From: Eledone cirrhosa
Lineage: Eukaryota
Assembly: GCA_964016885.1 (NCBI GenBank)
Contig: OZ024751.1
Location: 15,438,001 to 15,502,000, forward strand
Reading direction: 5' to 3'
DNA length: 64,000 nucleotides
In this document: positions 1 to 37,975 of the stretch, one piece after another
How positions within the stretch are numbered: the stretch's first letter is position 1
Layout of the letters: every line of letters begins with the position of its first letter
The notes under the pieces: generated by a model
What the model was told of the DNA's origin: nothing
Databases searched by the model: none
What the model saw: only the letters and a program-made list of their open reading frames with translations
Made by a program: the position numbers and the translations under genes

Positions 1-2902
1 GACCACCTTGCGGTGGGGGCATATTGTCTATATGCTTCAGCTTGTACCCATGGGAGGTCGGGTACTCTGTATTACTGCGTGACGCCAGAAGTCAGGGTCG
101 TGTGTCAAATCCTTTGAGAGGTGTAATTGGGTAAGGTCGGCTTTTATCACCTCATCTTGGGTCTCCCCACTCCGCGGTTTCCATCAACTTCTAGTGCTCT
201 GCACCTTTTTATGCAGCTGTCATCCTTCATACGCATCACATGTCCATACCAGCGCAACCGCCTCTCCTGCACACAGCATTTGATTCCTCTTATGCTCAGT
301 CTCTCTCTCAATTCATTTATGCTTTGTCGTTCACGTATATTACTGTTACACATCCATCGGAGCATGCAGGCTTCGTTTCTCTCTAATCTACGTAAGTCTT
401 CCACCTTCAGCGCCCAGGTCTCACTACCATGCAACATTGCTGTTCGGATACACGCATCATACAGTCTGCCTTTCATTCTGAGGGAGAAGCCTTTTGCAGC
501 TAGCAGTGGTAGTAGTTCCCTAAACTTCTTCCATCCCGTTCTTACCCTAGTTATTGTACTTTCTGAACACCCACCCCCGCTGCTAATTCGGTCACCTAGG
601 TAGCAGAAGCTGTCTACTGTTTCTACAGAGCCCTCCCAGAGATTGGTGGTACTTGTTTCCTGTGGCTGTTTCCTGCTTGCTGTCTCATCACAGCTGCTGC
701 ATGTGAAGCCTACATTCTTAATTAAGCTTCCTGAGATCCCGCTACATCTCTTGTGTACCCATTGTTTGCATTTGGGGCAGAGAATGGAGTTCCTACCTAC
801 ACCTTTCCTACATACTGAGCAAGGCCATTTCCCTGAGGGGATCTGGGTTCTGTTTTCTCGTCTACTTACAAGGACCTTAGTTTTTGTCATGTTGACTTTG
901 AGACCCTTTCTTTCTAGTCCCTGCTTCCAAGTTTGGAATTTATTCTCTAGTTCTACCATAGATTCAGCTATGAGTGCGAGGTCATCAGCATACAGGAGTT
1001 CCCATGGGCATCCGGTCTTAAACTCCTCCGTTATTGCCTGCAGGACTATGATGAACAGGAGGGGGCTAAGAACAGAGCCCTGGTGGACCCCAACCTGTAC
1101 GCTAAATTCTTTGCTATACTCATTGCTAATCCTAACTTTGCTGACTGCTCCCCTATACATGGCTTGTACCGCTTTCACAAGCCATTCATCTACTCCTAGT
1201 TTTCTAAGAGCCCACCAGATTACAGCACGTGGAACTCTGTCAAAGGCTTTCTCAAGGTCAACAAATGCCAAGTAGAGTGGCTTACTTTTAGCTAGGTACT
1301 TTTCCTGTAATTGCCTCTCAAGGAAGAGGGCATCAGTGGTGCCTCTTCCTGGTACAAACCCAAATTGCATCTCGTCTATTTCCACCCGGTCCCTAATCAA
1401 CTGTGCTATAACTCTTTCTGTTACTTTCATGACCTGGTCCATCAACTTTATACCTCTATAGTTTCCTCTATCTAGTGCATCGCCTTTACCTTTGTAGCAG
1501 TTGACAATGATGCTACTGCACCAATCTTTTGGCATGACACCTTCTAGTATTACCTGGTTAACAATACGTGTGGTTATAGTGTGACCTACAGACCCAGATG
1601 CCTTCAGCATCTCGGCAGCTATACCCGATGGACCGGTTGTCTTCCCCATCTTCATATCTTTGATTGCCTTACTTACTACGTTGCTGCTGACTTGTACTGC
1701 TGACCCCTCTATAGGGTCTACTTGGGGTAGGGTCTCTTCTTCCCATGCATTCTCCTCATTTAGTAATCTATCATAATGACTCTTCCATGCATCTTTCTTC
1801 TCAGCACTTGTGAGGGCAAGCTCACCTTTATCATTCCGGATACACTTCCCTCCAATGACATCACAACTATCTCTGACACACTGCCTCACAATCTTGAATA
1901 CCTCCTGTTTCTGGTCCTGACGTTGCAAAACATGCTTGAATTTTCTATCCTCTGCTTCCCTCCTAGCTAAGTATACTTGTCGCCTAGCTTCTCTCTTGGT
2001 CTCTATGTAATGTACCCTGCTCCCCCCGTTCTTCCATTCTTTCCATGCCTGTCTCTTGGCCTTAACTGCCTCATCTACCTTATTGTTCCACCACCAAGTC
2101 ACTCTCCTCCTGCTTGAGGTCTTACTCCAGCCACAGACCTCATCCGTCGCCTCTAGTAAATTATTTTTTAGGAACTCCCAGTTCTCTTCTACATTAAATG
2201 TCTCTATCTGTTCTTCTTTACTGTCGTAGGCATTGAGTAAAATATCTTTAAATCTGTTACTGGTTGAGGGGACTTTCAGCTTCCAGATCTTTCTTCTCCA
2301 GGTTGGCCTCTGTTTCCAGGTACGTCTAGTTCTGACCGTGAGGTCGCTGACAACTAAGCTATGTTGGGATGTACATTCCTCACTAGGGAAGGCTTTTGTG
2401 TTTACGACCGTCCATCTGTCACGTCCTTTGATGAGGATAAAATCTATCTGACTCGAGTGCTCCCCTGATCTATAGGTGATCAGGTGGTTGTCGGGTTTTT
2501 TAAAGTTTGTGTTACATATCGACATGTCATTGGCGTCGCAGAATTCTAGAAGTCTGAATCCTTCCTCATTTCTTGTGCCAACCCCATGGCCACCATGTAC
2601 TCTATTGAAGCCGTCGCAGTGTTTACCTACGTGTCCGTTAAAATCTCCTGCGATGATTAGGAAGTCATTGTTGTCTGTTAGAGCAGTAGTGTGCATTAGG
2701 GACTCGTAAAACCTATCCTTAAGTTCGTCTGGCAGCCCCGATTGGGGTGCGTAAGCTGATATTATTGTGGTAATTGTTTTATTCAGGACTAGTCTGAGTT
2801 TAATGATTCTTGCATTTACCCTGTACACTGAGATTACTTTATCTACCCACTTGTCAGCTAGTAGTATACCTACACCACCCATCCCATCGTCATTTCCCAC
2901 CC
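1..2902 (-). mobile_element. RTE-clade LINE, 5'-truncated, running off the window start
   Basis: ORF 147..2900 has APE motifs (SAYAPQ, GDFNGH, QIDF) and RT motifs (NYRGI, FVDLEKAFD, QGSVLSP, YADD, YLG). The C-terminus (VIKADLTQLHLSKDLTHDPDFWRHAV) continues in another frame at about 37-150 after a small deletion. Confidence 0.95.
147..2900 (-). CDS. RTE APE-endonuclease/reverse transcriptase ORF (917 aa open) with an internal PHD-like C4HC3 finger
   Basis: Uninterrupted frame. CSVC...CPKCKQWVHKRC...CSSC sits between the late RT motifs. The N-terminal APE part is missing. Confidence 0.85.
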   Translation of the reverse strand: MGNDDGMGGVGILLADKWVDKVISVYRVNARIIKLRLVLNKTITTIISAYAPQSGLPDELKDRFYESLMHTTALTDNNDFLIIAGDFNGHVGKHCDGFNRVHGGHGVGTRNEEGFRLLEFCDANDMSICNTNFKKPDNHLITYRSGEHSSQIDFILIKGRDRWTVVNTKAFPSEECTSQHSLVVSDLTVRTRRTWKQRPTWRRKIWKLKVPSTSNRFKDILLNAYDSKEEQIETFNVEENWEFLKNNLLEATDEVCGWSKTSSRRRVTWWWNNKVDEAVKAKRQAWKEWKNGGSRVHYIETKREARRQVYLARREAEDRKFKHVLQRQDQKQEVFKIVRQCVRDSCDVIGGKCIRNDKGELALTSAEKKDAWKSHYDRLLNEENAWEEETLPQVDPIEGSAVQVSSNVVSKAIKDMKMGKTTGPSGIAAEMLKASGSVGHTITTRIVNQVILEGVMPKDWCSSIIVNCYKGKGDALDRGNYRGIKLMDQVMKVTERVIAQLIRDRVEIDEMQFGFVPGRGTTDALFLERQLQEKYLAKSKPLYLAFVDLEKAFDRVPRAVIWWALRKLGVDEWLVKAVQAMYRGAVSKVRISNEYSKEFSVQVGVHQGSVLSPLLFIIVLQAITEEFKTGCPWELLYADDLALIAESMVELENKFQTWKQGLERKGLKVNMTKTKVLVSRRENRTQIPSGKWPCSVCRKGVGRNSILCPKCKQWVHKRCSGISGSLIKNVGFTCSSCDETASRKQPQETSTTNLWEGSVETVDSFCYLGDRISSGGGCSESTITRVRTGWKKFRELLPLLAAKGFSLRMKGRLYDACIRTAMLHGSETWALKVEDLRRLERNEACMLRWMCNSNIRERQSINELRERLSIRGIKCCVQERRLRWYGHVMRMKDDSCIKRCRALEVDGNRGVGRPKMR

Positions 2903-4622
2903 AGAAAAAAAAAAATAATAATGAAAATATTGTGTACAGTGCTCAGGTGCACTACAACTCATCAAAAGTGTGTATAGTACATAGGGTAATGTACAAAGGT
3001 CAGGAAAATGAACAGTGTATGAGTCATGATATACACGTGTGCATGTGTATGGAAAAGGGACATCAGGTGTAGTTTTGGTGAATTTCGGGAAGCATGGAGG
3101 TTTTAAAGGATGCAGTGTCTCGGCAGCTAACAACTGACGCAGCTCTAAGCGTGAAAAAATGTTTCCGAAAGTCATGGGAGCTGTGCTGTTTTCTGACTTT
3201 GTAGGCATGTCCACGTGTGTTAGACACACATGGAGATCAAAAAGGTGCTCAGGGTTGTGTTGGCGAGATGGTTAATAACTTTGTGGGTGTTTACCAAGTC
3301 CATTGCCAGACGTTGGAGCTTCAATGAATCTATGCCCAGGGAAACAAGGCGTTCAGAGTATGGTAGGTGTCTGATGGAGGGTATGCGCTTGGTTGCACGT
3401 CTCTGAACAGTTTCCAGGATGTCAATGTTCTGAGCAAGATAGGGGTTCCAGACTGATGATGCGAATTCCAAGTGTGGTCATACCATAGCTGTATACAGCT
3501 TTAAATAGATGGCTGGAGAGCGGCTAACAAAGGTCTCGCTGAGTGATGCCAAGACACCCTTGGCCTAATTGACAATTTTAGAGATGTGCTTTGTCCAACG
3601 CAAATCGCTGCTGACAGTAATGCCCAGGTCACGTTCACAACAGGACTTCTTGATATCAGTGTTGTGGAGGGAGAATGTGGACGCTGGATTTTTCCTCCCA
3701 AAATGCATGGTGGTACACTTGTCCACAGCCAACTTCAGTTGCCAGTCTGTGATCCATTGCTGCATTGTGTCCAGGTCTGATTGTAGGAAAGAGTTATAGA
3801 TTTCAGGATCTGTTCTTTTGATTTCAAGATACATCTTGATGTCATCTGCATATTTCAGTACTGTGGCATTCTTTAAGTTGGCATCTATGTGATTAATGTA
3901 TACAAGAAACAAAAGGGGACCAAGAACAGATCCCTGTGGTACACCAGATGACATCTCATATGGTGAAGAATGCTATCCTAGAACCGTGACTACCTCTTTT
4001 CGGCTGAGAATGAAGGATTTCAACCAGTTAAAAAGATCATCCTTCACACCCATTGCAGAGAGTTTTGCCATAAGTCTTTTGTGTGGCATAGAATTAAAAG
4101 CCTTAGCAAAGTCAAGGTAAACAACATCCACCCATGAGCCGCTGTCAGTGATCCGGATAATGTCTTCAAGGAACTTGATAAGCTGATCACAGCAGCTGGA
4201 GTTAGGGATAAATCCAAATTGCGAGGGCCGAATGAGGCTGTGAGAGCTCCAGAAGTTCCAAAATGTTTCTCTGACACAGGATTCCATCAGTTTGGCAATA
4301 CAACTAGTTAAAAGGTGACGTGCGGTTGCCCTTTTTGAACAGGGGAATGACACTGGCAGTTTTCCACTGCTCCGGAGTAGCATCATTGTTGACATGGTCA
4401 TACGTATGTCACAGAAAAAAACTTCTTGTGATTCGTTCAAATCAGCGCAAGGAATTACCGAAAAATTTGAACGAACGTAGACCATCACACCACCACCACA
4501 GCGATTAATGCAGTCCTTGCGGAACAGGTTATACCCAGTAATGCTGAAAAACCCATCACAGAGTAAGGAATGTGCCCATGTTTCTGTGACTGCGATGAAG
4601 TCAGGGTCGATTCTTCTGACGG
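2903..4622 (-). mobile_element. CR1-clade LINE ORF2 remnant with 3' end and internal deletions
   Basis: YLDFAKAFN, SGVPQGSVLGPLLF, YADD, ERDLGI and VWNPY...VQRRATK motifs. APE piece (FIAVTETW, GGVMVYV) at 4400-4620. 3' tail cattattattt at about 2905-2925. Confidence 0.9.
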
Positions 4623-4626
4623 AGTT

Positions 4627-5042
4627 TTTAGTGTAACGTCTACGTAACTATAACCACTAATTTGTATAAAGAAAAGGATAAGATATTTTTACATAACACC
4701 ATGTCGAATGAGAGTTAATTCCCATTACAAAGGTAATGACAAAACATAGGCAGTTTCTCGGAACGAGAATCAAATATAAGTCTTCATTTTGTAGTTCCAT
4801 GATATAATTGTTGTGAACAAATATTCTCGTACGTAATTAGGTATAGTCCAGATCCATAATAGTGGTTAGAGAAAAGTTAACATACTTGTCTTCAGTGTTG
4901 TCAGTTCGAAGGAAGGCGCCAAAAGAGAGAGAGCTTGATTGCGTTGCTGCTATTTATATCCTCTTTCTGGAAGTTACAATGAGGGTTCTAGACTTTTGGC
5001 GGAAAGTAACTCTAGCTACTTCCCTGTCTAGAGAGCGTTACA
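4627..5042 (-). mobile_element. Solo LTR inserted in CR1, with 4-bp TSD AGTT
   Basis: Minus strand runs TGTAACG...GTTACACTAAA. AGTT lies at 4623-4626 and 5043-5046. The uninterrupted target (ggagttaaacag) is visible in the CR1 copies at 7884 and 8801. It has a TATAAATA box and shares CGCTCTCTAGACAGG(G)AAGTAGCT with the LTR at 6049-6501. Confidence 0.85.
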
Positions 5043-5579
5043 AGTTAAACAGATGCATCTTGTTGCATAAACTGCGAGCATTTAAGGACAACAATTTGTA
5101 CCCTGCTAGCAGTTTACGATGGTATGTAGAGGATGACAGGTTGTTCTGGTTTAGTTTCCCAGAATTTAGTTTCCAGCTGACTAAAACTTTCATGTTGTGC
5201 TGAGTTCCGATTCAAGGAAGCTGCAGCACGTAGCTTTGGACGTACATCAGGTGATAGGCCTGGGCGTGTTCGGAAGGTAATCTGATTTTCACGCCCGGCT
5301 TTAACAGAGACCAGATGATATGAAATTGCCTCAGCAGGGTTCGAAAAAGACAGCCTAATGAGTCTGGGTTTTGGACCAGGTCGACCGAGGCGGAGAGCAC
5401 CCTTTGGGAGAACACAGCCTAGGTCTTTGGCTGAGCTGGCAGCAAATGCCTGAAGATCAGCCTTGTCTTCTGGTACCCTAATGGCAATTACTCCATGGAT
5501 AGCAGATTCCGCGGTCTTCTCAGTGTGCCCAGATCCGGCAAGAGGTACAGGGAGATTCTTTAGCAAGGCATTCCTATAA
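5043..5579 (-). mobile_element. CR1 ORF1 C-terminal part plus ORF2 start (continuation of the CR1 at 2903-4622)
   Basis: RLGRPGPKPRLIRLSF ORF1-type motif, followed by LLSLNARSLCNK (APE start) contiguous with 4620 across the LTR. Confidence 0.85.
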
Positions 5580-5729
5580 AAAAAAAGTAAGCGACCAACC
5601 GACCTATTGGCTGGTTGATCGCTTACTTTTTTTTCGTTTTTATTACAAATATGTACATATAATATTAATATTATCTCTAAGATATTACCAATTATATAAT
5701 TTAAGAATAAAAAAATTTATAAATTTTCA

Positions 5730-6501
5730 TTGCAAGATTCTGGTGATGGTACGTTTCTGTTTGAATTCATTAATCTTGCGTATTTCCTCCATCTGCATTC
5801 TCTGGTGTCGTTTTACTTTATCTGAATCGTCGTCTTCTCTGTCGCTGATTTCCAGTCTAAGGGTGTCCCGCTTCTATCTGGAGACGGAGTCCGAAGTCTG
5901 GTTCGTCTTTGTTGGTCGACTTGTTGGAGTTTTTCATACTCGTCTAAAATGTCTTTTTTTTTTTTTTTTTTTTAATATTATATACATCGTATACCTTTTC
6001 CCATTCGTTTTAAAAAAAAAAAAAAAAAATCACGTCGGGGGTCACCACTTTAGGAGATTAGATCGGTGTACATACAACATAAAAAAGACAGTAAATACCG
6101 GTGTGTGTTATAATAATGTTTTTACTTCATGGAAGTCAAAGGTATTAAATATTAAGGATTTGTTACCCGATGGTCATAACTCGAGGCTGAAGTTGGTAGA
6201 GAAAAGAAGAGATCTTTTCTAGCTGGTATTAACATCTTAAGCTCTCAGGCTGCAAGTTGCATTGTTCTTGGTAGCGAAGGATTATCAAAAAGGAATCATC
6301 ACAAGCTAAGGTCGCAGGTGTTACCACTTCAGAAATCAGGAGGCAAGAGGGAGATATTGTGGTAACCTGTTCCTTTTATAGGAGGTGACCGGAAGTGACC
6401 AACAGGGAGTCTGTCAATCCCAAAGGGAAGCAACTCCAGCTACTTCCTGTCTAGAGAGCGGTGATGAGATTGTCATGACCAGGGAGGCAACTCTTGCTAC
6501 A
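5730..6501 (-). mobile_element. Gypsy-like LTR retrotransposon 5' end: LTR 6049-6501, tRNA-Trp PBS, leader and possible gag start
   Basis: LTR runs TGTAGCA...CTCCTAAA, with TATAAAA near 6375. The PBS TGGTGACCCCCGACGTGAT (6029-6047) is complementary to the tRNA-Trp 3' end. Confidence 0.85.
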
Positions 6502-7139
6502 TACGTTTCTAATTCTGCTATAGTCATACTTGCTTTTAACTCTGTGTAAGGAATTAAAGCTGCTCTATGTTTAATTACTAATTGTATATATTCAGCATCG
6601 TGTTTCTTGTAGTAGGTTTTATCTATAGGATTTTCTGAACAATTTATGTAATGTATGAATGTTCTCGAGAATTTTTTAGATACTATTGGATTTATATCCC
6701 CTATTACTGGTGGATGATCCCCTTGTGCCATTGCTGCTGAACCCCCTGGTGATGGCCCTACGTGTGGATCCCCCATTGCTGGTGTTTCTACTATGCCACT
6801 ATCTTGTGATGTCGCTGCGTTCAATAGATCTTGATCTGATATATCGCAACTCTCTTCGTTTTTGTGTGATTGTTCTTGTTCTATTCTCCTCTTTTTTTCA
6901 GTAGGTGGCATTACAAAGTTTTTTCCTCTTACAATATTCCTTACTAAGAACGCCGATACTCCGCTACTTTTTTTACTACACTCGATTAGTTTGTTGTCAG
7001 CTTCTAATATAGTTATATCTTTTCTGTTGTAATCTAAATCGTGTTCTCTGCAGCACTTGTCTAATTCATTAACCGGTTTGTTGTTGTAATTGTTAGTGTA
7101 TGGTCCACAATAATTATAAGATGGTAAATGTAAAGGCAT
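6502..7139 (-). pseudogene. Endogenous parvovirus/densovirus capsid gene fragment (VP1 PLA2 domain plus start of the major capsid region)
   Basis: PLA2 Ca-loop and catalytic motifs (LPSYNYCGPY, DKCCREHDLDY, AD), KKRR NLS, a Gly/Ala-rich stretch, then KFSRTFIHY and IPY..L..SMT.AE resembling densovirus capsid strands. It is cut exactly at the LTR terminus (6501). Confidence 0.85.
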
Positions 7140-7143
7140 GATT

Positions 7144-7400
7144 ACTTACCGAGAGTTCTGCCAACATTGTTGCATCTCTGAGTTTCAAATTGTCGTAGCT
7201 CATCTTGGTGAGTAGCGAAGTATCGACGTTCTTCTTCTGGCGTGTAGTTCTGTTGTGGTAATTTGAATTGCGCGCCTTGATTTTTATACTGTTTTTAATG
7301 TTGACTATGCTTTTTATTTTGCCTACGTGTTCGTATTTTAAATTCTGCCTACGTAGCATTAATATTCCCGCTGTAATTGATATCTTCAATGTGATTGGAT
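7144..7400 (-). promoter_or_regulatory. Putative viral capsid promoter and leader exon
   Basis: CCAAT at 7394-7398, TATAAAAA at 7281-7288, ATG at 7203 opening 18 codons (MSYDNLKLRDATMLAELS) that end at a consensus donor G|GTAAGT (7149-7144) just before the PLA2 ATG at 7139. Confidence 0.55.
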
Positions 7401-7509
7401 AAGCTGCCTGCACTCTGCACTGCCCTTTTGGAAAGGAGACAAGCCGGTCGGTCGGGAGGGGGAGGTTACATTACACAGTTATAGCGTAAAGGCTCTTCAC
7501 GTTTGCCTA

Positions 7510-10500
7510 TCCGCAGATTCCGCGGTCTTCTCAGTGTGCCCAGATCCGGCAAGAGGTACATGGAGATTCTTTAGCAAGGCATTCCTATAAGACCCCTCAT
7601 TGTGGGGTCCAACCCGAATGCTTGCTTTTATTCCTGTTACTTCCCTTCTTAAAGCAGAAATCATTTGTTTCAATTCTGCAAAATCTGTACTAGTCAATTG
7701 ATGGAAGAAGTCCTTGGCAAACTGGATCAGTGTCTCAACGTACTGCTGCTGGGAGACTTTCACCTACCGAGGGCCACCTTCTCCCAGAAATGACACACTC
7801 AAACAGAGACAGACTGTCCTGGATCTCTGTAGGTGATGTCAGGGAGTTTTCTGAATCATCTCATCTCCGATGCTTCTGACGTAGGAGTTAAACAGATACA
7901 TCTTGTTGCATAAACTGCGAGCATTTAAGGACAACAATTTGTACCCTGCTAGCAGTTTATGATGGTGTGTAGAGGGTGGCAGGTTGTTCTGGTTTAGTTT
8001 CCCAGAGTTGTAGCAGTTTTTACATTGCCAGTTATTGTGGGTAGATCACACTCAGACCAGCTTGTATCTCTCTTCCACGTTTCACCAGCCTTGACAAACC
8101 TCCAGATCTGCCCATCATCACGCAGACTAAAACTTTCATGTTGTGCTGAGTTCCGATTCAAGGCAGCTGCAGCACGTAGCTTTGGATGTACATCAGGTGA
8201 TAGGCCTGGCTGTGTTCGGAAGTTAATCTGATTTTCACGCCCGGCTTTAACAGAGGCCAGATGATATGTAATTGCCTCAGCAGGGTTCGAAAAAGACAGC
8301 CTGATGAGTCTGGGTTTTGGACCCGGTCGACCAAGGCGGAGAGCACCCTTTGGGGGAACACAGCCTAGGTCTTTGGCTGAGCTGGCAGCAAATGCCTGAA
8401 GATCAGCCTTGTCCCCTGGTACCCCAATGGCAATCACTTCATGGGTAGCAGATTCCGCAGTCTTTTCAGTCTTTTCAGCAAGAGGTACAGGGAGATTCTT
8501 TAGCAAGGCATTCCGATAAGACCCCTCATTGTGGGGTCCAACCTGAATGCTTGCTTTTATTCCTTTTACTTCTCTTAAAGCAGATTGCAATTTTGCAAAA
8601 TTTGTACTGGTCAATTGATGGAAGAAGTCCTTGGCAAACTGGATCAGTGTCTCAACATACTGCTGCTGGGAGACTTTCACCTACCGAGGGCCACCTTCTC
8701 CCAGAAATGACACACTCAAACAGAGACAAACTGTCCTGGATCTCTGTAGGTGATGTCAGGGAGCTTTCTGAATCATCTCATCTCCGATGCTTCTGACGTA
8801 GGAGTTAAACAGATACATCTTGTTGCATAAACTGCGAGCATTTAAGGACAACAATTTGTACCCTGCTAGCAGTTTATGATGGTGTGTAGAGGGTGGCAGG
8901 TTGTTCTGGTTTAGTTTCTCAGAGTTGTAGCAGTTTTTACATTGCCAGTTATTGTGGGTAGATCACACTCAGACCAGCTTGTATCTCTCTTCCACGTTTC
9001 ACCAGCCTTGACAAACCTCCAGATCTGCCCATCATCACGCAGACTAAAACTTTCATGTTGTGCTGAGTTCCGATTCAAGGCAGCTGCAGCACGTAGCTTT
9101 GGATGTACATCAGGTGATAGGCCTGGCTGTGTTCGGAAGTTAATCTGATTTTTACGCCCGGCTTTAACAGAGGCCAGATGATATGTAATTGCCTCAGCAG
9201 GGTTCGAAAAAGACAGCCTGATAAGTCTGGGTTTTGGACCAGGTCGACCAAGGCGGAGAGCACCCTTTGGGGGAACACAGCCTAGGTCTTTGGCTGAGCT
9301 GGCAGCAAATGCCTGAAGATCAGCCTTGTCCCCTGGTACCCCAATGGCAATCACTTCATGGGTAGCAGATTCCGCAGTCTTTTCAGTCTTTTCAGCAAGA
9401 GGTACAGGGAGATTCTTTAGCAAGGCATTCCGATAAGACCCCTCATTGTGGGGTCCAACCTGAATGCTTGCTTTTATTCCTTTTACTTCTCTTAAAGCAG
9501 ATTGCAATTTTGCAAAATTTGTACTGGTCAATTGATGGAAGAAGTCCTTGGCAAACTGGATCAGTGTCTCAACGTACTGCTACTGGGAGACTTTCACCTA
9601 CCGAGGGCCACCTTCTCCCAGAAATGACACACTCAAACAGAGACAAACTGTCCTGGATCTCTGTAGGTGATGTCAGGGAGCTTTCTGAATCATCTCATCT
9701 CCGATGCTTCTGACGTAGGAGTTAAACAGATACATCTTGTTGCATAAACTGCGAGCATTTAAGGACAACAATTTGTACCCTGCTAGCAGTTTATGATGGT
9801 GTGTAGAGGGTGGCAGGTTGTTCTGGTTTAGTTACCCAGAGTTGTAGCAGTTTTTACATTGCCAGTTATTGTGGGTAGATCACACTCAGACCAGCTTGTA
9901 TCTCTCTTCCACGTTTCACCAGCCTTGACAAACCTCCAGATCTGCCCATCATCACGCAGACTAAAACTTTCATGTTGTGCTGAGTTCCGATTCAAGGCAG
10001 CTGCAGCACGTAGCTTTGGATGTACATCAGGTGATAGGCCTGGCTGTGTTCGGAAGTTAATCTGATTTTCACGCCCGGCTTTAACAGAGGCCAGATGATA
10101 TGTAATTGCCTCAGCAGGGTTCGAAAAAGACAGCCTGATGAGTCTGGGTTTTGGACCAGGTCGACCAAGGCGGAGAGCACCCTTTGGGGGAACACAGCCT
10201 AGGTCTTTGGCTGAGCTGGCAGCAAATGCCTGAAGATCAGCCTTGTCCCCTGGTACCCCAATGGCAATCACTTCATGGGTAGCAGATTCCGCAGTCTTTT
10301 CAGTCTTTTCAGCAAGAGGTACAGGGAGATTCTTTAGCAAGGCATTCCGATAAGACCCCTCATTGTGGGGTCCAACCTGAATGCTTGCTTTTATTCCTTT
10401 TACTTCTCTTAAAGCAGATTGCAATTTTGCAAAATTTGTACTGGTCAATTGATGGAAGAAGTCCTTGGCAAACTGGATCAGTGTCTCAACGTACTGCTGC

Positions 10501-11381
10501 TGGGAGACTTTCACCTACCGAGGGCCACCTTCTCCCAGAAATGACACACTCAAACAGAGACAAACTGTCCTGGATCTCTGTAGGTGATGTCAGGGAGCTT
10601 TCTGAATCATCTCATCTCCGATGCTTCTGACGTAGGAGTTAAACAGATACATCTTGTTGCATAAACTGCGAGCATTTAAGGACAACAATTTGTACCCTGC
10701 TAGCAGTTTATGATGGTATGTAGAGGATGACAGGTTGTTCTGGTTTAGTTACCCAAAGTATTTGCAGTTTTTTCATTGCCAGTTATTGTGGGTAGAGCGC
10801 ACTCAGACCAGCTGGTATCTCTCTTCCATGTTTCATCAGCCTTAACAAACCTCCAGATCAGCCCATTATCACGCAGACTAAAACTTTCATGTTGTGCTGA
10901 GTTCCGATTCAAGGCAGCTGCAGCACGTAGCTTTGGATGTACATCAGGTGATAGGCCTGGCCGTGTTCGGAAGTTAATCTGATTTTCACGCCCGGCTTTA
11001 ACAGAGGCCAGATGATATGAAATTGCCTCAGCAGGGTTCGAAAAAGACAGCCTAATGAATCTGGGTTTTGGACCAGGTCGACCGAGGCGGAGAGCACCCT
11101 TTGGGAGAACACAGCCTAGGTCTTTGGCTGAGCTGGCAGCAAATGCCTGAAGATCAGCCTTGTCTTCTGGTACCCCAATGGCAATTACTTCATGGGTAGC
11201 AGATTCCGCGGTCTTCTCCGTGTGCCCAGATCCGGCAAGAGGTACAGTGAGATACTTAAGCAAGGCATTCCTATAAGACCCCTCATTGTGGGGTCCAACC
11301 CGAATGCTTGCTTTTATTCCTGTTACTTCCTTTCTTAAAGCAGAAATCATTTGTTGCAATTCTGCAAAATCTGTACTGGTC
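7510..11381 (-). repeat. Tandem array of a 917-bp CR1 segment (ORF1 plus ORF2 start), about 4.2 copies
   Basis: ORF stops at 7994, 8911, 9828 and 10745 give an exact 917-bp period. Units are near-identical and match 5043-5579. Confidence 0.95.
7994..8680 (-). CDS. CR1 ORF1-like protein (228 aa; copies at 8911-9531, 9828-10514 and 10745-11381)
   Basis: Coiled-coil-like N-terminal part and RRM-like VIAIGVP...RLGRPGPKPRLIRLSF. Lies directly upstream of the APE start. Confidence 0.6.
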   Translation of the reverse strand: MKVSQQQYVETLIQFAKDFFHQLTSTNFAKLQSALREVKGIKASIQVGPHNEGSYRNALLKNLPVPLAEKTEKTAESATHEVIAIGVPGDKADLQAFAASSAKDLGCVPPKGALRLGRPGPKPRLIRLSFSNPAEAITYHLASVKAGRENQINFRTQPGLSPDVHPKLRAAAALNRNSAQHESFSLRDDGQIWRFVKAGETWKRDTSWSECDLPTITGNVKTATTLGN

Positions 11382-11917
11382 GATTTATATAGCTTCTTCC
11401 TATTATGCTCAATGTTATTAATGCTAGAGTTTATCACAAATAATGCATCGTCACGATGAAGTCCCCCTTTAAGGTGCGGAAAGCTAACATATAGTTCTTT
11501 CAAGAGGAACAGCCCAACAAGATTAGTTACCTGCGCCGAATCACTCGAACCCATTGTAACGTCAAAGTTGTTGGGTGTGTTTTTACGCGTCCAAAGTGTA
11601 TCTTCGAATTTGATGATAGTCCTACGGGCGGCTAGTATGACATCAATTTGGGGTCGCGTAAGACTAGACATTCGCATAGCCATCATTAAGGCTTTATTAA
11701 GGAGGATAGGTGAAATCGACGTGTAATAGGCATCTATATCAAACTCGATAAACCTACTAGACTCAAGCTTATTGATACCAGAGAACCAATCAATAACATC
11801 CTTAGTATTTCCCCATAGATTAAAATGAACCTTTTCCCTAACGGTAGGTATAATCAGGTCAAGGATTTTCTTACTAATTATAGCTATATCAGACTTAGAA
11901 GGACTGTTATGATCCTT
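11382..11917 (-). mobile_element. Penelope-like (Naiad-type) RT fragment
   Basis: SKSDIAIISKKILD, FIEFDIDAYY, DVTMGSSDSAQ and GLHRDD motifs, homologous to 15090-16140 and 18960-21240. Confidence 0.9.
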
Positions 11918-11949
11918 ATATATATATACATATACATATATATACATAT

Positions 11950-12530
11950 ACAAGAGGACCTCTTAGGCGTTTCCCGCCTTATGAAAGGAGCAAGGTTGCA
12001 CGCAGTGATTCGCGTTCTCAGCAAATCGCTCGTGGTACCAGCATAGAGATGAAGCTGGTGATTTATAACGCCGTCAAAAACTTTGCAATCTCCCACGACT
12101 GCGGGGGCGCGAACAGCCACCACACAATGCCTTCATCTTGTGGAGCTCTATGGTGAGCTCCTGAATGGACCTCTGCATCGCTATAATGGTCGAGCTGGCT
12201 GTTGGCGCTGCCACGTAGATCGCATGGCCGTGTGTGGCCCGAACTGGGTGGTGAACAGCGGCAAGGGGGTCGCTGCCTCCGGCATTCATCACCTTGAAAA
12301 CTTTGTCTGCAGATACAGCAAGCTGATCCACCGTGCTTGTATCCCTCATGGGGGCCAAAATTGCCTGTACGTTGGTCGGCAGGCGCGAGAAGAACAACTG
12401 CTTCAGCAGGACTGTTTCCGCTGCAGACCCCTCCGTTAGGTCCTTCATTCGCTTAAGGAGGTTCGATGGGGTGCCATCCCCTATATGCTCCAGATGGACC
12501 AGAGCCCTAAATCTTTTTTCTGAAGACTGT
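11950..12530 (-). mobile_element. Gypsy (Mag-like) gag fragment
   Basis: GDGTPSNLLKRM, LFFSRLPTNVQAIL and a C-terminal CWYHERFAENANHCVQPCSF motif. Confidence 0.8.
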
Positions 12531-13608
12531 TCTGTCCAGCTAGTGGTTATGTCATACAAGCTCTGTATCAGCCTGATTAATTTACCATTGTTGTTGTACA
12601 GCTTCATTGTGTTCCATAGTGTTGTGTGCCAAAACCCTGTTGAATGCCTTCTTGAAGTCTGCGAAGACATGGTAGAGATCCTGTTGATGTTGGAGGTACC
12701 TTTCGCAAATTATCCTAAAGTTGAAGATCTATGTTGTGTTTCACCTGGTTGGAAGCCTGCTTGCTTTTCAGTGATAATCTTTTCTGCTTGCGGCTTCAGT
12801 CGGTTTAGCAAGGTCTTCAGCATGACTTTGCTTGGTTGACTGATGAGGCTGATGGTACGATAAATTTGACATTGCTGTAGGTTGCCTTTCTTGGGGAGGG
12901 TGATGACGAGTGACTGGGTCCTAGTTTTTGACCATTCCCCTGTCTGTCAGATCTTATTGCAGATGGTCATTAGAGCACTTATCATGGCTTCTCCCCCTAC
13001 CTGCACCAGCTCCGCTGGGATATTGTCAACTCCTGTAGACTTCCCTTTCCTGAGCGATTTCACAGCTGATTCTACTTCTTCACAAAGGATGGGGTAGTTG
13101 TTGTTGGTTGCTGGAGGGACTTTCAGTACTTCTGGACCGTCTGCGGTTCTGGTTGTACAGCTCTGAGCAGTACTCAGTCCATCTGTTTTGGATGTTTTGT
13201 TCTTCAGTAAGGCTTTTTCCATCCTTGTCCTGTATGGTGATGGTTCGCTCTTGTTTACTGTTGGTCAGGTCTTTCACCAGTTGGTAAGCTTTCTTGCTGT
13301 TGTTCTTTTTCAGGTTATCTTCGATGTTCTGGCACTGCTCTTCTATCCAGTTCTCTTTTGCTCTTACCACGGCTATCTTTATTCCCTGGTTGACTGCCCC
13401 ATACTGTTTTGCTCCTTCCACATTGTTCTTCCTCCTCTTCAGCTCCCTCCGTCCCTCGCACATATGAAGTATGTCAGCTGTGACCCAGGGCTTCTTGATT
13501 GGGCCATATTTGTTAAGGATCTTATTGGCTGTGTCGTTCACTGCTGTGGTGAAGCTGTCGGTCAACGTGTCTGTGTCTCTGCCGTCAGCATCCAGAATGT
13601 GTGGCATT
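12530..13608 (-). mobile_element. RTE (BovB-like) LINE fragment, degenerate
   Basis: KSTGVDNIPAEL, LPKKGNL..C..YRTISL, QAGF and FADFKKAF motifs, with frameshifts. Confidence 0.85.
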
Positions 13609-13759
13609 AAATTTTTGGACATACTCTTCATATTGTCTCATAGAATTATGATAAGCAGTATTCAGTTATGGGCTTCACACATGTTTACGTATAAACTGTC
13701 AGAGGTGTTATCATTGTCGCCAACAGAAGTGTTCAGTGCGTTGAACTTATTCCAAAAGC

Positions 13760-14430
13760 ACTCCTGTCGTACAAACCTTACTTGGGCTGAACTCTCTGCT
13801 CTGTATACCCTATGGTGCTGCAGTGACATTGTAATTAAACTCACCAATAAAGGTGGTGCTATGGTGGTGTGTTGTGCAAATAATACCCAATTTTGCAGCC
13901 CCTTTATTTTCTGACCCCACCCAGGTTACTACAGCTTGTGTCCCCGACCATTTGCCCACTCATCTCCTCTATCCTACCCCCACACTGCCACAAATCTTAT
14001 AGTATGCACACCTGCTATGTACGTCCCCCCCCAAAATACATAAACTTACTAATCCTGGCCGTCCTATCATTTCCGCTTGCAACTTCCCTACTGAAATCTC
14101 CCAATACCATGACACCCACTTCACCCCCTTAGTCTCTGACTTCCCCTCCCACATCCATGGCACTAACCATTCTCTTTGACTGTTCAACTCCTTTTCCTCT
14201 CCTGACCCCTCTTGCCTACTCTTAAGCTTGGACTTCACTTCTCCCGACCCCACCCACACCAAACTCTCCAAACCCTCCTCCCAATTCCTCCGTTTTTGTT
14301 GGCTCTGCAATCACGATCATGATCTAAGCTGTCCATGATACTGACCACACAAAATCCCTCTTACCCCACAACTGTCCCACACCCTCCACAAAACTCACCT
14401 TCCTTTCATCTTCACCTATCATCCCTCTAT
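13760..14430 (+). mobile_element. Penelope-like RT fragment (different family), degenerate
   Basis: NLTWAELSAL...DIVIKLTNKGGAMVV and PKIHKLTNPGRPIISAC motifs. Confidence 0.75.
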
Positions 14431-14519
14431 GAGCTATTTACGAACCAAAGTTTTCTTAAACATAAGACAAAACTCCCCCACACACAGATAACATAACATT
14501 TTCAATACCATTACAATTA

Positions 14520-15090
14520 AACTCATCCTTGGGTCTTGATCCTCCTGCCGGCCATCTGCTCCACCATCAGATCCAGGCTCCAGCAGCTCACAAGCAGACC
14601 GGGCATCATTGACACCCACTCAGCTCTCTTCTTGTTGAGGAACTGCATTGCCATGCCAAAGGCTCCTCTACACCCTTTATAGCGCTCCTTAGTCACAACC
14701 ACGCATCTCTCCTTAATGACCTTGACACTTGTATCCGAGCAGCATGCTCAGAGATATGCAATGTTAGGTTTGACAACCTCTGATGACAACAGGCTACTTT
14801 AAGTGTTAGAAATGGTGGCCTTGGCCTCCAAGTCCCAGTCTCGCTGGTTTTGGCTTACCGGCGTTTCTTTTGTAGGTAATCTCTTGCCGTGTCCTCATCA
14901 ACAAGGTTCTCCAAAACACAATGGAACCATCTGTGATCGAGGAATGTGAGGCCGCCTGCGAGATTTGGAACCGGCTCGGACTCAGCCCAGTAAACACCCC
15001 TTCATCTTTTTTCCTTGTTGACGGCAAATTCCCCCCAGAGCATATGAGATGTTATCCAGTGCAACATGACCTCGGACAAACTTGCGCGAA
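14520..15090 (+). mobile_element. CRE-clade LINE fragment (post-RT region)
   Basis: Manual translation gives ALFLLRNCIAMPK...LDTCIRAACSEICNVRFD..QQATLSVRNGGLGL. Confidence 0.6.
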
Positions 15091-16140
15091 TTAAGTAAAA
15101 ATTATAAAAAGACACCTATGAACACACTTAACAACATAGACTGGGTAAGAATATTGTAACTAAATTAGAAATTGAAAATACACTGACTCTTACAAACCAA
15201 TGACCCCAGAATTCTCCCTTAAGGATCACAAGGTTAATTTTAACGATAACCCTTCAATTAGATTAATATGCCCCTCTACATCAGATATTGGTAAAATTAG
15301 TAAAATAATCCTAGATAGAGTAATACCAATATTAAGAAATAAGGCCAAGATTTTGCTATGGGGCAACACTGACCAAGTTATTAATTGGTTCACTAAGATA
15401 GTGGATGAGAAATCGTTTAAATTTATACACTTCGATATAGATAACTATTATGCTTCTATCTCCCCAATACTGTTAAATGAAGCCCTAATAATTACTAAAA
15501 ATGAAATAGATATAGTGCTAACAGCTAGGCGTACTATCATTGACTTTGACAGTTCATACTGGACCAGGGCCACCGACCTGATAACTTGGATATCATGATG
15601 GGGTCGAGTCACTCCACACAGGTAATGGAACTTGTTGGCATATACCTCTTACACAAACTTAAAGAAATTCCCACACTCCAAGGAGGTGTATATAGAGATG
15701 ACGCTCTATTTACAGTAAAAATACTACAACCCTCGTAGGATAGAAACATATTCACAGATTCTTTAAAACTAATGGCCTTTTGGTAACCATAGATACTAGC
15801 CATGAGATAGTTAACTTCCTTGATGTTACATTAGAACTATATACAGGACTATACAGACCAAACCATAAACTGGGTGAGGTGCTTTCCTACATGAGTAAAT
15901 CATCTAACCACCCACCCTCTATCCTTAACCGTAAAGAGCGTCTGTCATAGAATCTTGAGGCTCTCAGCTATTGAGGACTTGTTTAACTGCACTATAACAG
16001 TGCGCTGTCTGCGTCAGGCTATAATAATAAAATTTCTTACATCCAGGATATTAAATCTACTAAAATCCCTTTTCATAGTAACATAATCGCACAGCACACT
16101 AACTCTAATAACGATAGGACTAATAAAAATAGACTAGATG
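15090..16140 (+). mobile_element. Penelope-like (Naiad-type) RT fragment
   Basis: LKDHK.NF...PSIRLICPSTSDIG, FDIDNYY, MMGS, YRDD, NFLDVTL and SNHPP motifs. Confidence 0.9.
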
Positions 16141-16141
16141 T

Positions 16142-16615
16142 GTGTTTAGGAAGGGCATCCAACCAGTGTATCAATGTCAAAACGCTTATAAGCACACCAA
16201 CAAGTATATAGGAACAACAAAAATATGAAGATGTCACATCTCAGAGTTGCAACACTTAATGTTGGCACTCTCACAGGTAGATCTGCTGAAATAGCGGAGA
16301 TGCTGGAGAGAAGGCATGTGTATGTGTGCTGCGTGCAAGAGGTGAGATGGAGAGGTGCCTCTGCGAGACTAGTCGCAGGCAAACATCTTAGCTATAAGCT
16401 TTTCTAGGTAGGTAAGGATGATGGGTTAGGGGGAGTAGGCATTTTCCTGACAATAGAGGTAGTTCAAGTTAGTAATCGAATAATTAAGCTTAGACTACTG
16501 ACAATCATCTCTGCCTATGCTCCCCAAACGGGCCTAGGAAGAGAAAGAAGAGAAAGACTGCTTTTACGAGCAACTTTTACAAACAACCGCAATGACAGAG
16601 GACGGAGACATCGTT
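16142..16615 (+). mobile_element. RTE LINE 5' end (5'UTR plus APE start)
   Basis: ORF start RVATLNVGTLTGR...CVQEVRWRG, then SAYAPQ. The 5'UTR begins gtttaggaagggcatcca. Confidence 0.85.
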
Positions 16616-18950
16616 ATGCCTAACTTAATGCCTCTATAGTTTCCCCTATCTAGAGCATCCCCTTTACCCTTGTAGCAGTTAATGATGATGCTGCTACACC
16701 AGTCTTTCGGTATGACCCCATTCTGTATTACTTTGTTAACTATACGGGTGACCATAGTGTGTCCCACCATACCAGATGCCTTCAACATCTCAGCAACTAT
16801 CTCCGAAGGCCCAGCTGCCTTGCCTGTCTTCATATCTTTGATTGCCTTACTTATTATACTACCTTTAACTTGCACTGCTGGTCCTTCTATTGGATTGATT
16901 TGGGGCAGACTATCTTTTTCCCCATTTATTCTCCTCATTTAATAGTCTCTCGTAGTGACACTTCCAGGCTATCTTCTTATCAGTATCAGTGAGGGCAAGT
17001 ACACCATTATCATTACGGACACACTTCTCCCCGACAATATCACGATTTTCCTTGACACATTGTCTAGCAATCCTGAACACCTCATGTTTTTGGTCCTCAC
17101 GTTGTAGAACATGCTTGAACTTTCTATCCTCTGCTTCCCTTTTTGCAAGGTACACTTGTCTCCTAGCTTCTCTCCTGGCCACTTGATAGTGCTCTCTACT
17201 TCCCCCATCCTGCCATACTTTCCAAGCCTGCTTTTTGGCCTTGATTGTCTCTTCTACCTTACTGTTCCACCACCAAGTTACTCTCCTCCTGCCAATAGGT
17301 CTGCTCCAGCCACATATTTCATCCGTTGCTTTCAGCAGGTTCACTTTCAAGAATTGCCACTGTTCCTCTATATCGCACGTCTCTAATTGTTCTTCCTTAT
17401 TGTCAAAGGCATCAAGTAATAAGCTTTTAAATTTGTCACTGGCTATGGGGTCCTTCAACTTTCATATTCTTCTCCTCAAGGTTGGACTCCTCTGTCGTCG
17501 AGTACGTCTATTTCTGACTATGAGGTCACTAACTACTAACGTGTACATAGGTAGAACAGAATGAGATGCCATTGGTATACCGTAGGTAATTTGCCAAAAA
17601 AAAAAAAAATTGTCTCCGTTTGGAAAAATGTCTCCAACACAACAGAAAAGGAAAACAAAATCACTTATTTTTCTCTGTCAAACAACTGGACAGGAAAAAT
17701 AATGCATCCGGGACAATATGCAAAGGAGCGACTAACCGAGCGATGTCATTAATAAGGTATAGGCAGGGAATTTGAAACTAAAACCAACATGGCAGACTAT
17801 TTCACGCCAAAAACACTATTGATGGAGAAGAAAGCCGCCATCTTGTCATCCTCAACATTTTTAGCCAGAGAAGAGAGGAAAAAAAGAAAAGGAGAAAAAA
17901 AAGCAAAAACATTCGCACAATTGCTGTTTGTTTGTGTGTAAATAACTTTGGGTGTTCGTTTTGCACATATGAAGAGTTTGATGTTAAGTGTTACAGAGAA
18001 ATATGTTTAGATCGGTCAATACAGCCATATCAGAATCAAGTGTGTTGTTCTGTATTAAATGTTTTTTTTTCTCTTTTTTTTTTTATATACACATGGTACT
18101 ATTTCCCATTCTTTTTAAAAAAAAAAAACAAAAAAAAAAACGTCAGGTCACCAATTTAGGAGATTAGTATCAGTGTACATATATATAATATCAAGAATGA
18201 CAATAAATGCAGGTGTGTGTTGTGACAAGGTTTTACTTCACAGAAGTCAAATAAATTAATATAAATAATTTGTTACCACATGTAGATGTTCAGTTGGTCA
18301 CAACTCCCAGACTGGAGTGTGTAGAGAAGAACAGAAATCTTCTCTTGGAGGTGTTTAAGTATTTCTTTAGGCTGCCGGAATTCTTCTTCTTGCGGTCGAA
18401 GGAAGTGAGACAGGAGTCATCTCTTGACAAGGTCTCAGGTGTTCTTGTCCCTTCGGAGTTCAGGATGTGAGAGAGGCTTATGCCTTGGCAGCCCTCAAAT
18501 ATATAGTCCCCAGGGGGATGCAACTCCATTTAGTACATGAATCTGCCTATGGGGGTCGCGCCTGTCGCAAAGGGACGTAACACCTATACGTGCTGAGTTA
18601 CGACCGTCGTAAAGGGACGCAACTCCTATACGTGCTGAGTCACAGCCGTAAGGGGCTGCTACAGATATAATCTATCTGGCTGGCATGTTCCCCTGATCTA
18701 TAGGTGATCAAGTGGTTTTCACATTTTTTGAAGTTTGTGTTACAGATAGTTAGGCTATTTGCGTCACAGAATTCCAGGATTCTGAAGCCTTCCTCATTTC
18801 TATTTCCAACCCCATAGCCTCCATGGATTCCATCATAGCCATCACTATGTTGTCCAACGTGACCGTTTAGATCGTCAGCAATAATTAAGTAGTCGCTGTC
18901 GGTTATTTGGGAAGTAGTGTGCATTAGCATCTCATAGAACCTGTCCTTTA
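16616..18950 (-). mobile_element. RTE LINE fragment (same family as 1-2902), split by an LTR element
   Basis: APE part at 18664-18950 (GHVGQH...SQIDYI), then LVVSDL...GNYRGIKL at 16616-17540. Confidence 0.85.
17540..18663 (-). mobile_element. Gypsy-like LTR element 5' end: LTR 18155-18663, degenerate Trp PBS and leader
   Basis: TGTAGCAGC...CTAATCTCCTAAA, one base, then TGGTGACCTGACG (18141-18153). U5 and the poly-T leader are similar to 5950-6150. Confidence 0.8.
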
Positions 18951-31400: not shown

Positions 31401-31799
31401 TTAAACATTATTGTTACAAGCACATGTACACCCTTTGGAAATATAGTTGCCACAAAGTAGATAACTATAATTGTTTCTACTTTTGGCACAAGGCCAGCAA
31501 TTATCCCAGTACATTACTGGTACTTTATTTTATCGACCCCGTAAGGATGAACGGCGAAGTTAACCTAATAATAGTTGACTAAATTGAGAGAAGTACTTCC
31601 GTAATTCGACAAGATTTCATCAGATTTGCAAATTGCTTGGACCAAATAGGTTTGGTTTCGTTCTGGTACTGGGTCAGTAGCATACCTTTTAGAGATCCAG
31701 AGCCAGACACAAAACCCAGGCACACATTTCAATGTGACCTGTGTGACGAGCAGTCAGGTATGAACGTCTTGGATTTTGACTTGTTATTGGGCTTTCGTT

Positions 31800-32648
31800 A
31801 GTTGAGTAACTCAAGTTATGTACGCCATCACTACAAATTTGGGCAGTGGTCCACTAAGTGAACCTTTCAGTAGCTGAGTAACTCACGTGTACGCCATCAC
31901 TACAAATTTGGGCAGTGGTCCACTAAGTGAACCTTTCAGTAGCTGAGTAACTCACGTGTACGCCATCACTACAAATTTGGGCAGTGGTCCACTAAGTGAA
32001 CCTTTCAGTAGCTAAGTAACTCAAGTTGTGTACGCCATCACTACAAATTTGGGCAGTGGTCCACTAAGTGAACCTTTCAGTAGCTAAGTAACTTACGTTG
32101 TGTACGCCATCACTACAAATTTGGGCAGTGGTCCACTAAGTGAACCTTTCAGTAGCTGAGTAACTCAAGTTGTGTACGCCATCACTACAAATTTGGGCAG
32201 TGGTCCACTAAGTGAACCTTTCAGTAGCTGAGTAACTCAAGTTGTGTACGCCATCACTACAAATTTGGGCAGTGGTCCACTAAGTGAACCTTTCAGTAGC
32301 TAAGTAACTCACGTGTATGCCATCACTACAAATTTGGGCAGTGGTCCACTAAGTGAACCTTTCAGTAGCTAAGTAACTTACGTTGTGTACGCTATCACTA
32401 CAAATTTGGGCAGTGGTCCACTAAGTGAACCTTTCAGTAGCTGAGTAACTCAAGTTGTGTACGCCATCACTACAAATTTGGGCAGTGGTCCACTAAGTGA
32501 ACTTTTCAGTAGCTAAGTAACTTACGTTGTGTACGCCATCACTACAAATTTGGGCAGTGGTCCAATAAGTGAACCTTTCAGTAGCTAAGTAACTTACGTT
32601 GTGTACGCTATCACTACAAATACAAGCAGTTGTTCACTAAGTGAACTT
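31800..32648. repeat. Minisatellite, 69/72-bp unit, about 12 copies
   Basis: Unit agctgagtaactcaagttgtgtacgccatcactacaaatttgggcagtggtccactaagtgaacctttcagt. Confidence 0.95.
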
Positions 32649-37129: not shown

Positions 37130-37975
37130 ATATTCTTAGAAAACCTGTATATCTTCAGACAAGATATATTCTAAGACAGGATATATATATTCTACGGGTG
37201 TATATTCTAAGACGGGATCTTCAGACAAGATATATTCTAAGACAGGGTATATATATTCTACGGGTGTATATTCTAAGACAGGATCTTCAGACAAGATATA
37301 TTCTAAGACAGGATATATATATTCTACGAGTGTATATTCTAAGACAGGATATATATATTCTACGGGTGTATATTCTAAGACGGGATCTTCAGACAAGATA
37401 TATTCTAAGACAGGGTATATATATTCTACGGGTGTATATTCTAAGACAGGATATATATATTCTACGAGTGTATATTCTAAGACGGGATCTTCAGACAAGA
37501 TATATTCTAAGACAGGGTATATATATTCTATGGGTGTATATTCTAAGACAGGATATATATATTCTACGGGTGTATATTCTAAGACAGGATCTTCAGACAA
37601 GATATATTCTAAGACAGGATATATATATTCTATGGGTGTATATTCTAAGACAGAATCTTCAGACAAGATATATTCTAAGACAGGATATATATATTCTACG
37701 GGTGTATATTCTAAGACAGGATCTTCAGACAAGGTATATATTCTAAGACAGGGTGTATATTCTAATACAGGATATATATATTCTAAGACAGGGTGTATAT
37801 TCTAATACAGGATATATATATTCTAAGACAGGGTGTATATTATAATATAGGATATATATATTCTAAGACAGAGTGTATATTCTAAGACAGGATCTTCAGA
37901 CAGGGTATATATTCTAAGACAGGGTGTATATTCTAATACAGGATATATATATTCTAAGACAGGCTATATATTCTA
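37130..37975. repeat. Compound minisatellite built from tatattctaagacagg subunits
   Basis: Direct inspection. The repetitive ORFs here are by-products. Confidence 0.9.

Follow-up and report, generated by a model that had tools for sequence, protein, structure and literature searches.

Anatomy of the block

The window analysed here is a stretch of 64,000 nt (C11:15,438,001-15,502,000), without any N, from a 3.0-Gb animal genome. Its first 18,950 bases consist largely of mobile-element or virus sequence, annotated pieces covering 18,090 of them (95%), which bears out the dense pile with almost no spacer described in the initial annotation. Such a density of mobile-element fragments is what is expected of a uni-strand piRNA cluster. 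The anatomy of the block (Table 1) is the order obtained by comparing the individual pieces with more complete copies at other sites, and the Gypsy gag and LTRs were identified by matching full elements elsewhere in the genome. Among the families first listed, RTE and CR1 (Pfam RVT_1), Gypsy and a parvovirus (PF08398) stand, whereas CRE and Penelope are presumptive labels, drawn from sub-threshold Pfam matches and, in part, from motifs typical of these families. Several of the supposed separate fragments belong together as single interrupted elements: LTR-B divides CR1a, LTR-A the virus element and a second Gypsy (Gypsy-2) RTE-A2. Several pieces are indeed young with open frames, as RTE-A demonstrates with its frame of 931 aa, and identities to other copies range from 89 to 96.6% (RTE-A 96.6%, gag 96%, LTRs 92-94%, CR1 89-92%).

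Table 1. Pieces of the block in window positions 1 to 18,950.
Feature	Position	Strand	Remarks
RTE-A LINE	1..2890	-	Full 3' end, truncated 5' end; open frame of 931 aa encoding EN, RT and PHD
CR1a	2905..5579	-	Single, internally deleted CR1 copy running from 3' UTR to ORF1; interrupted by LTR-B
LTR-B (Gypsy), inside CR1a	4633..5042	-	Orientation taken from full element L119
Parvovirus-like element, right end	5580..5949	-	NS1 tail and terminal hairpin (5579-5634)
LTR-A, Gypsy 5' LTR and ~100 bp leader	5950..6501	-	90-93% to full elements
Parvovirus-like element, left part	6502..7512	-	Capsid gene start with PLA2; one left terminal repeat arm
CR1b	7513..11385	-	917-bp unit repeated 4.2 times in tandem; 3.9 kb
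Penelope-like RT fragment	11444..11915	-	57% aa to a library Penelope-like ORF
Internal Gypsy gag fragment	11953..12541	-	Family of LTR-A; 96% to many full elements
RTE-B LINE fragment	12544..13637	-	RVT_1; best other copies 81%
Four pieces on the plus strand, most of them older	13750..16620	+	Penelope-like (69-75%); CRE-like RT fragment (14521-15088, 81%); Penelope-like (15176-16097); RTE 5' head (16146-16530)
RTE-A2 split by second Gypsy	16621..18950	- (both)	Second Gypsy: leader and LTR, 17540-18475

RTE-A, the tail of which extends ~250 bp upstream of the window, has its 96.6% identity to a copy designated L118. CR1a, with a match to RVT_1, aligns as four colinear blocks (89-94%) to a full CR1 copy (L074), and LTR-B within it has a likely 4-bp target duplication and paired copies ~5 kb apart (91-94%). 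The right end of the parvovirus-like element matches three other copies at 68-73% in DNA, and its terminal hairpin (z=-7) has similar counterparts in two other copies. LTR-A occupies the place of the missing middle of the virus element. The left part, 90% identical to its nearest copy, encodes the VP1 PLA2 domain (PF08398, E 5e-15, 6414-7145 minus); no significant hairpin was found at 7430-7520, where the window holds a single arm of a repeat that has 53-nt arms in copy L038. Each CR1b unit comprises 765 bp from the start of CR1 ORF1/EN and a further 165 bp, and the units differ among themselves by 3-7%. The gag fragment has the same two ends in all matches listed and is fused to RTE-B without spacer.

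GC content in the first 19 kb is 0.39-0.48, richer than most of the remaining window, and 4 of the 127 tandem-repeat rows fall there. The scarcity of SINEs and microsatellites reported initially holds for 1-13.6 kb, where microsatellites amount to 0.25% (vs 8.3% in the remaining 45 kb) and SINE matches to 0 (vs 9 per 10 kb among the neighbouring genes). However, the former is not specific to the block, since microsatellites are also scarce in the gene-bearing zone from -40 to -12.4 kb (0.34%), and control regions hold 0-6 SINE loci per 10 kb, so that both are weak as markers of the locus. The CpG ratio was uninformative, and a search of the window for tRNA genes found none.

Strand bias and the upstream flank

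In 1-13.6 kb nine events can be oriented, and all lie on the minus strand, as the initial annotation had stated; these are RTE-A, CR1a, LTR-B, the parvovirus-like element, LTR-A, the CR1b tandem array, the Penelope-like piece, the Gypsy gag and RTE-B. The accompanying estimate of about 0.4% by chance is right if the events are independent (two-sided p=0.004), but p rises to 0.016 once CR1b and gag are no longer treated as independent events, and the 13.6-kb boundary of the core was set post hoc, with four plus-strand pieces at 13.7-16.6 kb. The biased archive of some 19 kb contracts to a one-way core of ~14 kb. The 19 kb taken together have 11 minus and 4 plus events (p=0.12), which makes the window alone weak evidence, and in the 164 kb examined, with its ~38 pieces, nine in a row would occur by chance with a probability of 0.06. 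The window's own strand statistic is thus marginal.

Examination of 100 kb of upstream flank revealed a METTL6 gene on the plus strand (exon match E 7e-21, with further exons tentatively assigned by motif), head to head with a LYAR-like gene. METTL6 ends ~12.4 kb upstream of the window, with its last exon at -12.5 kb, and so a host gene precedes the block in antisense orientation to its fragments, which is a feature of read-through clusters. That the block is a METTL6 intron was considered and rejected, as its coding sequence, so far as recognised, has its last exon and stop at about -12.4 kb. Between METTL6 and the window there follow, in order, a Penelope-like piece (plus, directly behind METTL6), an RTE (minus), a Penelope-like piece (minus), a second parvovirus-like piece (minus, about -6.4 to -5.5 kb) and an RTE head (plus). 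The second virus piece belongs to a family distinct from that of the window element. Its minus orientation agrees with the core, but from -12.4 to +19 kb the balance is 14 minus to 6 plus (p=0.12). Plus-strand AATAAA sites number seven from the METTL6 stop to -6.4 kb and only two from -6.4 to 13.8 kb.

Parvovirus-like elements across the genome

Three pooled searches gave 113 virus hits at 43 loci, both counts being lower bounds. Six of these loci, including the window locus, contain units separated by more than 4.5 kb, and all six are single-strand, although local duplication may account for some of the multi-unit loci. Under uniform placement, the chance of a second virus unit within 100 kb is 0.35%. 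At the window locus two distinct virus families lie within 14 kb on the same strand; several viral elements are thus gathered in one orientation, a further feature of read-through clusters.

The elements carry features of the Parvoviridae, namely an SF3 helicase NS1 (PF01057) in related copies, the PLA2 domain (PF08398) and terminal hairpins; most of NS1 is missing from the window's copy. Octopus vulgaris has annotated relatives of the virus proteins (NS 78%, capsid 39%), which supports an octopod host, within the cephalopods first suggested. In one-sense parvovirus genomes the usual order is NS then VP. Unlike these, the elements described here have the capsid gene (VP) ahead of NS1 on the same strand, in both families. 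A narrow literature search found no publication on octopus parvoviral elements or on a capsid-first gene order.

Other loci and controls

For comparison, we analysed 30-150 kb around ten other virus-element loci together with ten arbitrary 20-kb controls. Coding fragments were oriented with a library of 98 proteins from ORFs of these loci and with Pfam checks; many library entries have no Pfam hit, and some strand labels come from long ORFs and homology, not from Pfam. Locus counts refer to non-viral pieces after merging and removal of tandem copies. One-strand bias beyond chance was found at two sibling loci, C12a and C25a. The clearest of the one-way loci is that on C12 (C12a), which is at least 136 kb long; of its 45 transposon pieces in 150 kb, 42 are minus and 3 plus (p=9e-10). 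At C25a all 12 non-viral pieces share a strand, and at C25b 14 of 16 do, which brings the strongly one-way loci to three of the ten. When proteins from a locus's own ORFs were excluded from the library, the counts were 34/37 for C12a, 11/11 for C25a and 11/13 for C25b, the last with p=0.022, which would fail a tenfold correction. C25c is balanced over the 70 kb fetched (9 to 8), with a stretch at 1.7-32 kb that is all plus, and at six of the ten other virus-element loci the pieces are either few or of mixed orientation. The initial annotation had allowed that a similar bias might be common in random repeat-dense windows. In the ten arbitrary controls 11 of 21 neighbours were co-oriented, that is, without bias, but these controls are not matched for element density.

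The bias at C12a, C25a and C25b extends to DNA transposon and Helitron pieces, all 23 of which lie on the majority strand; Helitron pieces and tandem units are present at C12 and C25b. Three of the five DNA transposons checked in biased loci retain both terminal repeats. They were therefore inserted as DNA, and their orientation must have been filtered or biased afterwards. We rejected the idea that the sibling loci are segmental copies of one another, as only 6-14% of their sequence is shared at 90% identity. At another locus, where the strand was predicted beforehand, a Merlin, a hAT and two virus pieces all matched the prediction in a stretch of 4.5 kb, the portion covered out of 130 kb planned at six loci, and a further co-oriented Merlin lies 6 kb past the last NS1 hit. 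No upstream host gene was confirmed near C25a, C25b or C25c, and the left end of C12 is beyond the stretch fetched. For an 892-aa plus-strand ORF ~12 kb before the C25a block the searches gave neither a Pfam family nor a longer homologue.

Interpretation and alternatives

The core of the window is best read as a candidate piRNA trap, small and uni-strand, which read-through may feed, and from its architecture we put the probability of this at about 0.58. It is likely to be a small piRNA source locus because it is a one-way pile behind a host gene and because much larger piles of similar kind exist elsewhere in the genome. The initial proposal of a uni-strand piRNA or trap locus thus survives in outline, with the architecture present and common to larger, stronger loci and with a plus-strand gene upstream, but on a smaller scale (a core of ~14 kb) and with a marginal statistic. 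Within the genome's set of one-way trap loci, the window locus is a plausible small member.

We propose that the core (1-13.6 kb), together with the pieces on the minus strand as far as 9 kb upstream, would form one piRNA source locus. Insertions would arrive in either orientation, and at least some of the pieces did insert at the DNA level, as the LTR target duplication and the viral hairpin ends indicate. Those antisense to a long plus-strand transcript would be kept, because this transcript, which would cross the block and be processed to PIWI-bound piRNAs, would bring about silencing of the active families of RTE, CR1 and Gypsy, and perhaps of the virus. Deletions and tandem duplication later altered the core, and the plus-strand block at 13.7-16.6 kb may be older background or the edge of the locus. 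A weaker step in this proposal is the source of the precursor, which might be read-through from METTL6, as in the downstream-of-gene clusters of mosquitoes and mammals; if the locus is a cluster, we would give METTL6 roughly even odds of supplying it.

Selection of a different kind could have produced the same pattern. The block may lie in a long plus-strand transcribed region (an extended 3' end, a non-coding RNA or an unrecognised intron), from which sense insertions were purged because they terminate or mis-splice RNA, with no piRNAs involved. The plus-strand METTL6 upstream is consistent with this, as is the distribution of AATAAA, which occurs once on the plus and 11 times on the minus strand in 1-13.6 kb, 21 vs 46 times at C25a and 21 vs 40 times at C25b. 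However, the asymmetry is absent at C12, the strongest locus (173 vs 177), and is largely due to a T-rich plus strand (T/(A+T) 0.56). Moreover, the recognised coding exons of METTL6 all end before the block, and purging leaves unexplained both the gathering of separate virus elements and the 42:3 bias, antisense bias in introns usually being milder than this. We therefore consider this account unlikely.

Less probable still is that elements piled up neutrally, one nested in another, in a gene-free spot, the one-way run being due to chance and to a boundary chosen post hoc among thousands of windows. Nesting, deletion and tandem duplication are all evident in the block, and the 11:4 balance and the chance calculated above for a run of nine leave room for such an account. 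Against it stand the two distinct virus families close together on the same strand and the sibling loci, which are far beyond chance. Nested integrase insertions, too, should take an orientation independent of that of their host element.

Co-orientation could also have been created at insertion, through RNA chains made by a template-switching reverse transcriptase or through capture by a Helitron-type carrier. Points in its favour are the joining of internal fragments with no spacer between them (gag and RTE-B, for example) and, at C12 and C25b, the presence of Helitron pieces and of tandem units. We judge this very improbable, given the DNA-level ends (viral hairpins, the likely LTR target duplication and transposons with both terminal repeats), the lack of any Helitron piece found in the block and the absence of the composite junctions elsewhere among the matches listed. 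Finally, an assembly artefact joining repeats is scarcely credible: a tandem array is assembly-prone and, of the junctions, a single one (CR1/virus, at 5579) is bridged among the independent-technology contigs listed, where a missing bridge proves nothing, but the window contains no N, the tandem units differ from one another, and the virus part has a single-copy-like depth of 5.5-11 in three contig sets with few differences, from one sample that is possibly the assembly's own source.

Comparison with known piRNA loci

Dense transposon fragments on one strand are common to the block and to flamenco and flam-like loci, and the latter were found from strand bias alone, flamlike1 then being confirmed by small RNA (PMC10643416). 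The flam-syntenic clusters, however, span 227-1,085 kb with a Gypsy-driven bias (PMC10643416), whereas the core here is 14 kb. Set against a Gypsy-driven locus of more than 200 kb, the window locus is not strictly flam-like, because the flam bias is driven by Gypsy over hundreds of kilobases and Gypsy makes up three of the nine core events. Also unlike flamenco, the bias in the block and its siblings covers LINEs, Penelope-like elements, Gypsy, DNA transposons, Helitrons and virus.

In its working the locus would resemble clusters behind host genes. The core piRNA clusters of Aedes are likewise one-directional, lie downstream of a host gene and hold several viral elements antisense to the transcript; they differ in carrying RNA-virus elements and in having measured piRNAs and read-through, whereas the present locus, known from sequence, combines a DNA (parvovirus-like) virus with many transposon classes (10.1101/2022.08.22.504762). 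In mammalian piC-DoG loci, antisense transposon fragments are packed behind a host gene on the gene's strand, as here, but the dense fragments start right behind the gene and read-through has been shown, while a mixed stretch of 12 kb intervenes at the window locus (PMC11615739). Molluscan piRNA clusters come from the same phylum and from an active PIWI pathway, and their sizes of 2.7-17 kb are similar to that of the core. They come from bivalves and gastropods and were defined from small RNA, and the available parts of these papers report no one-way virus-rich cluster and no cephalopod cluster (PMC11067994, PMC6128900). In starfish and sea anemone, parvo- or denso-like elements are a source of piRNA-like antisense RNAs with 1U, and DNA-virus elements have thus been proposed in piRNA loci there too; those elements are known from small RNA and not from genomic context, whereas the window elements are known from genomic context alone (PMC6085071).

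Conclusion

To conclude, uni-strand trap clusters have already been characterised in flies, mosquitoes and mammals, and we found no description of one from a cephalopod in the literature listings searched. Coordinates and predicted strands are now at hand for several loci, among them C11:15,425,000-15,457,000 (the window locus), C12:8,969,501-9,106,000, C25:582,000-629,000 and C25:7,910,000-7,943,000. A broader and more tentative possibility is that octopods keep a family of one-strand piRNA traps (here the window locus, C12, C25a and C25b, with candidates on C2, C841 and C18) that archives all classes of transposon along with repeated captures from an undescribed capsid-first parvovirus-like lineage and so would confer heritable piRNA immunity to a DNA virus, the window locus being a young cluster forming behind METTL6. 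Piwil1 and Piwil2 are conserved in molluscs, Octopus included (PMC6128900), the literature on PIWI pathway genes used here being that for molluscs and Octopus bimaculoides; for the latter, small-RNA data also exist (PMC12479628). Since molluscs are reported to be without DICER2 and siRNA Argonautes (PMC11114477), antisense virus pieces in piRNA loci would be candidates for a heritable antiviral defence.

One-way blocks elsewhere in the genome

Among the loci examined, the one-way block on contig C12 is the strongest candidate for a cluster. It extends over at least 136 kb, a lower bound as its left side is open, and a single strand holds 42 of its 45 transposon pieces together with five of its six virus pieces. 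Twelve element classes are represented and microsatellites make up about 0.2%. Within the block lies an RT fragment (RVT_1, E 1e-12) that starts with a zinc finger and probably resembles the rDNA-specific R2 clade. C12 also has a tandem array whose units contain a host-like ankyrin-repeat fragment (Pfam Ank_4, E 2e-9); it shares the strand of the transposon pieces there.

On contig C25, two one-way blocks of opposite polarity lie 450 kb apart, the pattern that a bidirectional cluster would give; the analysis covered a minor part of the intervening stretch. The same contig carries a tandem repeat whose unit combines pieces of Gypsy, Helitron, Penelope-like and piggyBac elements. About 12 kb before C25a, a one-way locus with virus elements, lies a low-complexity ORF for which neither a Pfam family nor a homologue was found.

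Features in the window, in pieces fetched from the same genome (L) and on other contigs (C)
Feature	Location	Strand	Detail
Parvovirus-like copies, capsid first	window 5580-7512; L025, L026, L023, L020, L038		plus further genome matches
Virus-element arrays	L041:2602-7087 (C14); L044:2662-9873 (C10)		
LYAR-like gene	L011:2069-3283	minus	one long ORF
METTL6	L011:5550 to L010:7560	plus	
SINE-piece/RTE-head composite	window 16146-16497; L009:8281-8651	plus	two copies
Minisatellites	window 31792-32646; 37148-37975		72-bp unit, 11.8 copies; nested 19-168-bp units
C12 one-way block	G000:C12:8969501-9106000		L120-L123, L100-L103, L075, L076, L025-L027
Ankyrin-repeat array	L101:4154 to L103:8239		units ~1-2 kb
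RT fragment	L121:583-2046		
C25 tandem unit	C25:599001-629000 (L024, L081, L082)		10.4 kb, at least 3 repeats
Opposed C25 blocks	C25:7431001-7464000; C25:7910000-7943000		
Low-complexity ORF	L106:2888-5563	plus	892 aa

Surroundings of the window and parvovirus-like elements

Upstream of the window, the LYAR-like gene and METTL6 are arranged head to head. An exon at L014:3-455 is presumably UAP1-like. The minus-strand core is flanked by the two composite copies, which are 87% identical.

In both parvovirus-like families the capsid gene precedes NS1 on the same strand, separated by a few bases in several copies, and terminal hairpins enclose the pair. The Octopus vulgaris annotation includes relatives of these proteins, at 78% for NS and 39% for the capsid. 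On C14 and C10, copies of one virus element form inverted and head-to-tail arrays, which look like integrated replication intermediates.
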